Program-made: the position numbers and the translations under genes
From: a virus
Lineage: Duplodnaviria; Heunggongvirae; Uroviricota; Caudoviricetes
Virus record (IMG/VR): IMGVR_UViG_2695420540_000009
DNA length: 14,990 nucleotides
Reading direction: 5' to 3' (one strand)
Shown here: positions 1,217 to 1,885 of the stretch, piece after piece
Layout of the letters: each line of letters opens with the position of its first letter
How positions within the stretch are numbered: the first letter of the stretch is position 1
The notes under the pieces: model-generated
The model's input: the letters and a program-made list of their open reading frames with translations, nothing else
What the model was told of the DNA's origin: nothing
The model's database searches: none

Positions 1217-1885
1217 ATGGTGAAATCAATGAAAACAAACACAGATGATGGGGCTAAAATTTACACACCACTTACCCTAAAGCTTTATGACTGGTGGGTT
1301 TTGGGAGTATCAAATCGGCTTGCATGGGGATGTCCTACAAAGGAACACCTTCTTCCACACTTTCTGGAACATTTAGGTAACAACCATCTGGATATTGGTG
1401 TTGGAACTGGGTTTTACCTTACTCACGTACCTGAGAGTAGTCTGATATCTTTAATGGATTTGAACGAAGCTAGCCTGAACGCGGCATCTACAAGGGCTGG
1501 GGAATCAAAAATTAAACATAAAATTAGCCATGATGTTTTTGAACCTTATCCCGCGGCGTTACATGGTCAATTTGATTCCATTTCCATGTTTTACCTTCTT
1601 CACTGCCTGCCTGGAAATATATCTACAAAAAGCTGTGTAATACGCAATGCGGCGCAGGCCTTAACTGATGATGGAACTCTATACGGAGCCACAATTCTTG
1701 GCGATGGAGTTGTGCACAATAGCTTCGGTCAAAAACTGATGCGCATTTACAATCAGAAAGGCATCTTTTCAAACACAAAAGATTCCGAAGAAGGCTTAAC
1801 ACATATACTCTCAGAGCATTTCGAGAATGTTAAAACCAAGGTTCAAGGTACTGTAGTAATGTTTTCCGCTTCAGGGAAAAAATAG
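1217..1885 (+). CDS. putative class I (Rossmann-fold) SAM-dependent methyltransferase, 222 aa; AT-rich cargo gene of unknown substrate
   Basis: ORF track 1217..1885 (+). Contains a glycine-rich SAM-binding motif I-like sequence LDIGVGTGFYL and a downstream LTDDGTLYGATI segment consistent with small-molecule/protein methyltransferases. No DPPY/NPPY or PCQ DNA-methyltransferase motif seen. The ATG at 1217 has no clear RBS; the ATG at 1229 (MKTNT...) follows GGTGA and may be the real start. Visibly AT-rich compared with the tail genes. Confidence 0.6.
   Translation: MVKSMKTNTDDGAKIYTPLTLKLYDWWVLGVSNRLAWGCPTKEHLLPHFLEHLGNNHLDIGVGTGFYLTHVPESSLISLMDLNEASLNAASTRAGESKIKHKISHDVFEPYPAALHGQFDSISMFYLLHCLPGNISTKSCVIRNAAQALTDDGTLYGATILGDGVVHNSFGQKLMRIYNQKGIFSNTKDSEEGLTHILSEHFENVKTKVQGTVVMFSASGKK

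Follow-up and report, generated by a model that had tools for sequence, protein, structure and literature searches.

An intact copy of the prophage gene ybcY upstream of ipaH, encoding a predicted class I SAM-dependent methyltransferase

Results

The locus and its gene call

The DNA analysed, hereafter the window, is a stretch of 14,990 nucleotides from the Caudoviricetes record IMGVR_UViG_2695420540_000009. An open reading frame (ORF) of 222 codons, with no internal stop codon and no N, occupies positions 1217..1885 of the plus strand and is a real, intact gene. It stands between a remnant of a tail fibre assembly (tfa) gene on its left and ipaH on its right. The genes J, lom, stf and tfa of the window lie beyond ipaH, on its far side. 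The features around the ORF are listed below, with ybcY as the name of the gene.

891..1160, minus strand: tail fibre assembly gene remnant (C-terminal 89 codons), divergent from ybcY; Pfam Caudo_TAP
1161..1216, plus strand: divergent spacer of 56 bp with sigma-70-like promoter elements, from a scan and a published promoter
1217..1885, plus strand: ybcY-type class I SAM-dependent methyltransferase, longest ORF, 222 aa
1229..1885, plus strand: probable true coding sequence, 218 aa, 24.0 kDa, pI 6.6
1891..1927, plus strand: hairpin directly after the ybcY stop codon (RNA fold -20.4 kcal/mol, z -2.67)
1926..3850, plus strand: ipaHe (class 3, ipaH2202-type) cassette with AT-rich leader, MxiE box and the ipaH gene at 2201..3844
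2066..2082, plus strand: MxiE box GTATCGTTTTTTTACAG, between the two genes and belonging to ipaH
890..3850, plus strand: module of tfa remnant, ybcY and ipaHe, 2,961 bp, 99.7% identical to enteroinvasive E. coli (EIEC) FDAARGOS_944

A first-pass annotation made from the letters of the window had described the product as a 222-aa SAM-dependent methyltransferase with the SAM-binding motif I DIGVGTGFYL, encoded by an AT-rich orphan gene upstream of ipaH on the same strand. This description stands. The ORF is intact and its product scores above the curated cut-offs of four Pfam models; the neighbours are the tfa remnant and ipaH (2201..3844, plus strand), with no restriction or other partner gene adjacent. 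The GC content of the gene is 0.410 (GC3 0.354), compared with 0.505 for the window and 0.54-0.56 for its tail fibre and J genes.

The start codon of ybcY is probably ATG 1229, giving a protein of 218 aa, rather than ATG 1217. Met5 is shared by all of 22 orthologues and is the first residue of most of them, and the PHROG 2132 profile aligns over its positions 1-218 with residues 1-218 of the shorter protein. In addition, the pseudogene of Escherichia coli K-12 carries a 2-bp deletion exactly at that ATG. A Shine-Dalgarno-like GGTGA is found at 1219-1223, 5 nt upstream of 1229. Residue numbers given below for the protein are those of the 218-aa form.

The gene is ybcY of lambda-like prophages

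The first-pass annotation could not recognise the product as a named protein. Comparison with sequenced genomes supplies the name: the ORF is almost certainly an intact Shigella/EIEC copy of ybcY, a moron carried by lambda-like prophages at their tail-fibre end. When matches of at least 98% identity over at least 80% of the ORF were counted, megablast placed ybcY in 3,799 of 5,426 complete E. coli genomes (~70%), some of which carry up to four copies. DNA identity to the E. coli copies is 98-99.7%, and 99.0% to the DLP12 locus of K-12. The match in K-12 MG1655 is a frameshifted methyltransferase pseudogene of the DLP12 prophage, flanked by a tfa remnant and appY/ompT on one side and by tfaD/nohD on the other; the name ybcY is used in papers describing this K-12 ompT/tfaX neighbourhood. 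PHROG 2132, to which no function is assigned, matches the protein end to end (E 3.6e-156, profile 1-218), and a cluster of 6,589 deposited sequences has the 222-aa form as its representative.

The gene is also present at full length in 14 E. coli phage genome records, with 98.6-99.5% identity. Phages carrying it are ev243, 2G7b, the PhiR series, Kati, Turner and phage 204576. Across the phage collection 15 of 50,697 records hold ybcY, and most lambdoid phages there are without it. The gene order in ev243 is J, lom, tail fibre, two small ORFs, the methyltransferase gene on the opposite strand, the tfa remnant, a hydrolase gene, ompT and the integrase gene.

The tfa remnant is the constant left neighbour of ybcY in E. 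coli prophages. In the window it matches Pfam Caudo_TAP with an E-value of 2.3e-26 over profile positions 75-130 of 131, and the annotations of K-12, EIEC, WP5-S17, O157:H7 and phage ev243 give it as a partial tail fiber assembly protein. The arrangement of divergent tfa remnant, 56-bp spacer and tail-fibre end is the same in these five and in MS7163, and the spacer itself is identical across four loci. The window gene and the DLP12 gene (PHROG 2132) are therefore the same gene, sharing the divergent remnant, the promoter spacer and the site at the tail-fibre end of a lambdoid prophage. They differ in that the K-12 copy is a pseudogene, with its 2-bp deletion at the probable start codon, whereas the window copy is intact, as is the gene in most other E. 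coli. The 3' flank, a tfa gene at the K-12 locus, is the ipaHe cassette in the window. One amino-acid change, Lys to Thr at residue 3, separates the protein from the five copies examined in E. coli and phages.

The gene ybcY is already known as such, but no member of its family has been characterised. Our literature search found no published function for ybcY, the papers giving it as a landmark, as a promoter entry or as a deletion mutant without phenotype. Searches on the protein accession, or on methyltransferase together with tail fibre assembly and moron, returned nothing.

Promoter and orientation

A putative promoter for ybcY lies in the divergent spacer and consists of TTGATT (1188-1193), a 17-nt gap and TATAAC (1211-1216). 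TTGATT-17-TATAAC is the constitutive RpoD promoter assigned to ybcY by genomic SELEX, and the same study reports that H-NS has a site within the ybcY/tfaX spacer (Shimada et al. 2014, PMC3946193). The published promoter sequence is present exactly at 1188-1216 in the window. Its -10 element abuts ATG 1217, and the leader before ATG 1229 would be only ~6 nt. A consensus scan offers an alternative promoter with TTAACC (1161-1166), a 16-nt gap and CATAAT (1183-1188).

The gene is oriented opposite to the phage late genes. This orientation, the low GC content, the 3' hairpin and the published RpoD promoter with its H-NS site all suggest that ybcY is an autonomously expressed cargo gene of the prophage, for which its own sigma-70 promoter is predicted here from sequence. 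Accordingly, the cargo part of the first-pass proposal, which had offered an uncharacterised cargo gene or a simple passenger, holds, and its passenger alternative is close to the truth.

A different possibility is that YbcY serves the phage itself, in superinfection exclusion, in anti-defence, or in modifying some component of the phage or of the cell surface that is connected with the neighbouring tail fibre genes. The gene is always found among fragments of tail fibre assembly genes at the tail-fibre end, a region that also holds the lysogenic-conversion genes lom, ompT and bor. However, it is transcribed opposite to the late operon, from a promoter reported to be constitutive and sigma-70 dependent (PMC3946193), and YbcY has no significant match in PADLOC (best E 0.0033). 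Only 15 of the 50,697 phage records hold the gene, and in other genera the orthologues are ordinary genes of the chromosome, located outside prophages. A role in the service of the phage is therefore improbable, and we retain the reading of ybcY as autonomous cargo.

Relation to ipaH

The product of the downstream gene has 547 aa and matches NCBIfam IpaH_Shig (564 bits) and Pfam NEL (E 6e-77). Class 3 ipaH genes (ipaHe, ipaH2202) encode 547 aa with six LRRs and have a MxiE box, with 315 nt as the modal length of their upstream region (Dranenko et al., PMC9046306 Table 2). The intergenic region between ybcY and ipaH, 1886-2200, is exactly 315 nt. As this equals the modal class 3 length, ybcY is probably the usual upstream neighbour of class 3 ipaH in Shigella. 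The MxiE box at 2066-2082 matches exactly the consensus GTATCGTTTTTTTANAG, as quoted in PMC9769918, and is the only match in the window at up to three mismatches. None was found upstream of ybcY at that threshold, in agreement with the first-pass reading of 1161..1216 by eye.

The pairing of the two genes arose by insertion of ipaH beside a pre-existing prophage gene. By BLAST and alignment, the window is near-perfectly matched by K-12, WP5-S17 and ev243, which lack ipaH, from the tfa remnant through the methyltransferase gene. This homology ends at window position 1925, ~40 bp past the ybcY stop codon and at the 3' foot of the hairpin 1891-1927; in the ipaH-less prophages a tfa gene follows. 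Only 9 of the 5,426 E. coli genomes contain the ybcY-ipaH junction, and each of them has an annotated ipaHe; the ipaH leader itself is confined to the same 9. The flanks of the 2,961-bp module differ on both sides between the window and EIEC FDAARGOS_944. In E. coli O157:H7 the slot 3' of ybcY is filled by a yciG-like gene, two ferritin-like genes and a Mn-catalase gene. Comparison of these loci indicates that the ipaHe insertion point is an exchangeable slot, which takes other cargo in other strains.

These results bear on the suggestion of the first-pass annotation that the methyltransferase is a co-acquired effector or host-modifying enzyme. Under that explanation YbcY would be a type III secreted effector, or a methyltransferase modifying the host, that was acquired together with ipaH. 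The gene does share its strand with ipaHe and lies 315 nt upstream of it, within a module of 2.96 kb common to the window and EIEC; as the upstream region of class 3 ipaH is typically 315 nt in Shigella, the two genes are probably always paired there. In its AT-richness ybcY resembles other virulence genes gained by horizontal transfer, and effectors that are methyltransferases are known. NleE/OspZ are SAM-dependent cysteine methyltransferases that act as type III effectors and are encoded in accessory regions of EPEC and Shigella. Their fold is their own, with no known relation to the class I Rossmann fold, and they are not known outside pathogens bearing type III secretion systems (T3SS). 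YbcY resembles them in its predicted use of SAM and its accessory-region location, but it belongs to the canonical class I enzymes, and most bacteria in which it is found lack Mxi-Spa.

The distribution of ybcY further argues against an effector. While 3,799 of 5,426 E. coli genomes have the gene, ipaH stands beside it in only 9. On the co-occurrence question raised in the first-pass annotation, ybcY is thus found independently of ipaH, and also of any T3SS. Temperate coliphages of commensal and laboratory hosts carry it, K-12 has a pseudogene, orthologues occur in Klebsiella and Enterobacter, and relatives occur in Pseudomonas and fungi. Neither regulation through a MxiE box nor restriction to T3SS bearers, two features expected of an effector, is found for ybcY. 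In S. flexneri, RNA-seq identified 41 Congo-red/MxiE-responsive genes, among them five chromosomal ipaH genes (PMC9769918 Table S1); this regulon table, in which reads from multicopy genes may be under-counted, includes no methyltransferase. The residues from ~11 on are modelled within the conserved catalytic cap, and the first 10 residues have a pLDDT of 48. Finally, the ipaH cassette was inserted later. Given that ybcY is widespread in lambda-like prophages and that ipaH arrived later, ybcY is best viewed as phage cargo, and a Shigella effector is very unlikely.

Fold and SAM site

YbcY matches Methyltransf_12 (37.6 bits), _23, _25 and _11 of Pfam above the curated cut-offs, with alignments starting at motif I. 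The motif, D55-I-G-V-G-T-G61, has its glycines G57, G59 and G61 conserved in 98-99% of 89 relatives. D77, at the end of the predicted strand 72-77 (strand 2), is invariant in the 89 sequences and takes the place of the acidic residue that contacts the ribose hydroxyls in class I enzymes, and D116/S117 lie at the end of strand 4. The AlphaFold2 model has a pLDDT of 94 and a pTM of 0.90, its first 10 residues being poor (pLDDT 48). It predicts a class I fold of seven strands, to which three helices add an N-terminal cap, and strands 5 and 6 are separated by a helical insertion. The model shows the class I sheet with its C-terminal antiparallel hairpin and matches solved members structurally, so that the Pfam and structure-prediction check suggested by the first-pass annotation recovers the class I SAM-binding fold. 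With a pI of 6.6, no hydrophobic segment and no extra domain, YbcY is predicted to be soluble, a class I SAM-dependent methyltransferase of 24 kDa whose SAM site is intact and is predicted to bind SAM.

Solved structures give limited guidance on the substrate. Profile matches in the PDB are to NodS, ToxA, JHAMT and UbiG; whether made with the single protein or with a profile, searches of PDB sequences extend no further than the Rossmann core of unrelated enzymes. The structurally nearest solved enzymes are MM_2633 (3dtn), BelI (9fce), PsmD (7zgt), RebM (3bus), DhpI (3ou2) and Coq5 (4obw), at 12-18% identity, and no solved structure closer than 20% was found among PDB sequences and structural matches. 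We know of no occurrence in those enzymes of the cap motif Y-D...W-x-C-P, of L-H-C-L-P-G after strand 4, or of Y-N-x-K-G-I-F-x-N-x-x-D. A substrate cannot be transferred from them to YbcY. In BFVD only generic viral methyltransferases are matched, with TM-scores of at most 0.62.

Orphan DNA methyltransferases are frequent in phages and prophages, and a SAM motif I is present here, which might suggest that YbcY is one of them or a remnant of a restriction-modification system. However, a regular-expression search found no (D/N/S)PP(Y/F/W) or PCQ motif, as the first-pass annotation had also concluded, and no DNA-methyltransferase family of Pfam or NCBIfam matches. The 218 aa include no target-recognition domain, no restriction gene is nearby (the neighbours being the tfa remnant and ipaH), and the structural neighbours are small-molecule enzymes. 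Such an activity is extremely improbable.

The wider family and selection

Orthologues with 56-90% identity are found across Enterobacterales, Klebsiella and Enterobacter included, and also in Aeromonas and Shewanella. Those examined in Salmonella, Enterobacter and Yersinia (56-65% identity) each stand alone on the chromosome, outside prophages, and their neighbours differ from genus to genus. The Citrobacter orthologue (90% identity) has small accessory genes around it, dinI-like and CdiI-type immunity genes among them. An exhaustive search retrieved 1,320 cluster representatives at E <=1e-3, of which 196 were at <=1e-30. Relatives with 35-50% identity occur in Pseudomonas, Janthinobacterium, Lysobacter, Dyella, Paraburkholderia, Hahella, Acidobacteria and many ascomycete fungi. 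None of the relatives in this range bears a specific name, and those reached through a fungal member are called only 'class I SAM-dependent methyltransferase' or 'hypothetical'. The first-pass annotation had regarded strong homology to a housekeeping small-molecule methyltransferase in a conserved chromosomal context as evidence against its proposal. This applies in part, as the relatives are chromosomal and of small-molecule type, but none is characterised and their neighbourhoods are not conserved.

Among 89 sequences at 33-90% identity, at least 91% conservation is seen for Y12, Y20, D21, W33, C35, H53, motif I, D77 and S117, and for H125, C126, P128, G129, K134, G153, T155, N175, F180, N182 and D185. 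Relative to the Citrobacter orthologue, ybcY shows 29 synonymous and 23 non-synonymous differences and a dN/dS of 0.20. Together with the conserved residues of the catalytic region, this ratio indicates that ybcY is under purifying selection and encodes a constrained, functional enzyme.

Gene neighbourhoods and fusions offer some hints. Two of the long relatives carry fused domains, one a cytochrome P450 and one RCC1, the others having the methyltransferase domain only. Neighbours of relatives include Pirin and epoxide hydrolase genes in Lysobacter, MATE and RND efflux pump genes in Dyella, MerR, DJ-1 and zinc alcohol dehydrogenase/quinone reductase-type genes in Enterobacter, and FMN reductase genes in Paraburkholderia and Salmonella. 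No partner gene is conserved across these neighbourhoods. The redox or xenobiotic theme among them is anecdotal and suggestive only. An association with DUF892/Mn-catalase was seen in one Pseudomonas group only; a second group keeps just DUF6388 adjacent, and as the link was not reproduced there, it was dropped as evidence.

YbcY might also methylate a macromolecule of the lysogen, such as rRNA, tRNA or a protein, and in this way alter translation or confer resistance to a toxin or antibiotic. RNA and protein methyltransferases account for many of the single-domain class I enzymes that are 200-250 aa long, the structural and sequence matches include CmoA, Trm9, RsmC and cap methyltransferases, and the absence of a pathway partner would fit as well. 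Nevertheless, the best structural and profile matches are small-molecule enzymes, the pI is 6.6 with no RNA-binding extension, and one relative is fused to a cytochrome P450. The family is present in fungi and bacteria, yet no NCBIfam RNA-methyltransferase model matches. A macromolecular substrate thus seems unlikely. Given the resemblance in fold and the absence of nucleic-acid-binding features, the substrate of YbcY is more plausibly a small molecule, a view that we hold with modest confidence.

Discussion

On balance, we favour the explanation that ybcY is a moron encoding a cytoplasmic small-molecule methyltransferase expressed from its own promoter. In this scheme YbcY would work in the bacterial cytoplasm of the lysogen, with motif I, D77 and D116/S117 as its SAM-binding elements. 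It would pass the methyl group of SAM on to a heteroatom or an activated carbon of a low-molecular-weight acceptor. The acceptor may be held between the three-helix cap, with Y12, Y20, D21, W33 and C35, and the insertion between strands 5 and 6, with N175, F180, N182 and D185. The invariant His125-Cys126, directly after strand 4, would be located at the acceptor site, where the histidine is likely the general base; this placement is taken from the general architecture of class I enzymes. A candidate Cys/His metal or metalloid site comprising C35, H53, H125 and C126 was also considered. The role of such an enzyme might be lysogenic conversion through modification or detoxification of a metabolite or xenobiotic.

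TehB, Tpm and Rv0560c are stand-alone methyltransferases with detoxifying roles. The resemblance of YbcY to TehB, bacterial Tpm and Rv0560c/7bgg is an analogy of lifestyle only, without a specific sequence relationship. Accordingly, a role of YbcY in detoxification or stress is put forward tentatively. It is similarly speculative that the YbcY family, spanning Proteobacteria and fungi and marked by the invariant His-Cys pair predicted at the acceptor site and by a conserved Cys of the cap, is a new functional class of stand-alone methyltransferase for a specific gut, environmental or thiol-reactive/metalloid compound. If this were true, the prophage copy, present in Shigella and in ~70% of E. 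coli, would give lysogens a measurable chemical-resistance or signalling phenotype.

The moron concept is reportedly due to Hendrix, and the cargo of EHEC prophages is said to have been described by Tobe et al. in 2006. The cargo loci at the tail-fibre end of lambdoid prophages, with lom, bor, ompT and EHEC T3SS effector genes, occupy the same niche as ybcY. They also share its logic of low GC content, own promoter and position between the tail fibre genes and the attachment site. Unlike those loci, the window pairs two cargo genes of different origin and regulation, ybcY being sigma-70 driven and widespread, and ipaHe being MxiE-dependent and restricted to Shigella/EIEC.

For Shigella pathogenesis, ybcY carries little weight. 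It is not a partner of ipaH and should not be listed as a candidate effector; rather, ipaHe was inserted into a cargo slot downstream of this common prophage gene. Nonetheless, among the prophage genes of E. coli that still lack a function, ybcY is one of the most widespread, and its whole family, including the fungal members, is uncharacterised. For this reason, finding the substrate of YbcY would annotate thousands of genomes at once.

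The ipaH cassette and its borders

In the window, ipaH (2201-3844) encodes a product of 547 aa, has an upstream region of 315 nt and is preceded by an exact MxiE box (2066-2082), 119 nt 5' of its ATG. This gene is a class 3 ipaH (ipaHe, ipaH2202 type), in agreement with the class 3 features tabulated in PMC9046306. The cassette and the features that flank its module are:

1-133, window left end: second 3' fragment of a tail fibre assembly gene (tfa), with 92% identity to 917-1048
54-812 (-) region: IS110-family transposase, N-terminal portion (NCBIfam transpos_IS110)
~1926 to ~3850: ipaH cassette
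3856-4062 (-): truncated invertase gene
4266-4877 (+): alternative tail fibre C-terminus
5030-5563 (+): tfa
5592-6155 (-): opposing tfa
6121-9762 (-): opposing tail fibre gene (stf)

On the left, a gap of 41 N lies between the tfa 3' fragment and the transposase part, whose match to transpos_IS110 scores under the cut-off of that model because the transposase is truncated. The presence of this transposase part means that an IS element bounds the module of tfa remnant, ybcY and ipaH on its left side. To the right of ipaH, the genes from 3856 to 9762 look like a Pin/Gin-type invertible tail-fibre segment, with the alternative tail fibre C-terminus and tfa on the + strand lying opposite the tfa and stf on the - strand. 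Only the first 68 codons of the invertase gene are left, with the truncation exactly at the border of the ipaH cassette; therefore, inversion of the segment is probably frozen. A single N (3851) is also found at this border.

Repeats and gaps in the window sequence

Within stf, an 850 bp internal tandem repeat of the Ala/Ser-rich region (7727-8571 and 8582-9450, 88% identity) is interrupted by a 10-N gap (8572-8581), leaving the length of the 1,213-aa tail fibre ORF uncertain. Further right, 1.1 kb of sequence, spanning the J 3' end and the beginning of lom, is present twice (10453-11554 and 11681-12782, 96% identity), with a further repeated pair nearby (10107-10281 and 11556-11730) and N runs at the joints of the duplication (10282-10391, 10458 and 11555). 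The duplication looks either like an artefact that arose in assembly or scaffolding or like a recent tandem event, and it accounts for a chimeric 386-aa ORF (10709-11869) in which a Lom N-terminus is joined to a J C-terminus.

Expression and genomic context of ybcY

The published -10 element of the methyltransferase gene ybcY, TATAAC (1211-1216, in the region 1188-1231), directly adjoins the annotated ATG at 1217. Transcription from the published promoter is predicted to start at ~1223, ~6 nt 5' of the probable true start, ATG 1229. The ybcY mRNA would then be nearly leaderless, or else the upstream TTAACC-16-CATAAT promoter would be in use.

The sole conserved gene pair observed for the YbcY family is in Pseudomonas (L013-L016 and L026-L027), where the YbcY-family gene always lies 30 bp after a 97-aa DUF6388 gene on the same strand and is followed by an enoyl-CoA hydratase-family gene. 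In E. coli K-12 and other strains (L001 6612-6749; L023 5614-5751), the RefSeq annotation includes a 45-aa 'nucleocapsid protein' or 'hypothetical protein' on the strand opposite the ybcY 3' end, a call that is almost certainly spurious.

In E. coli O157:H7 F1273, the slot 3' of ybcY that holds ipaH in the window is occupied by other cargo, all on the same strand: a general stress gene resembling yciG, two genes for ferritin-like (YciE/YciF-type) proteins and one for a Mn-catalase (L022 6167-8380). Given this different cargo, the 3' flank of ybcY seems to be a recurrent site of cargo insertion.
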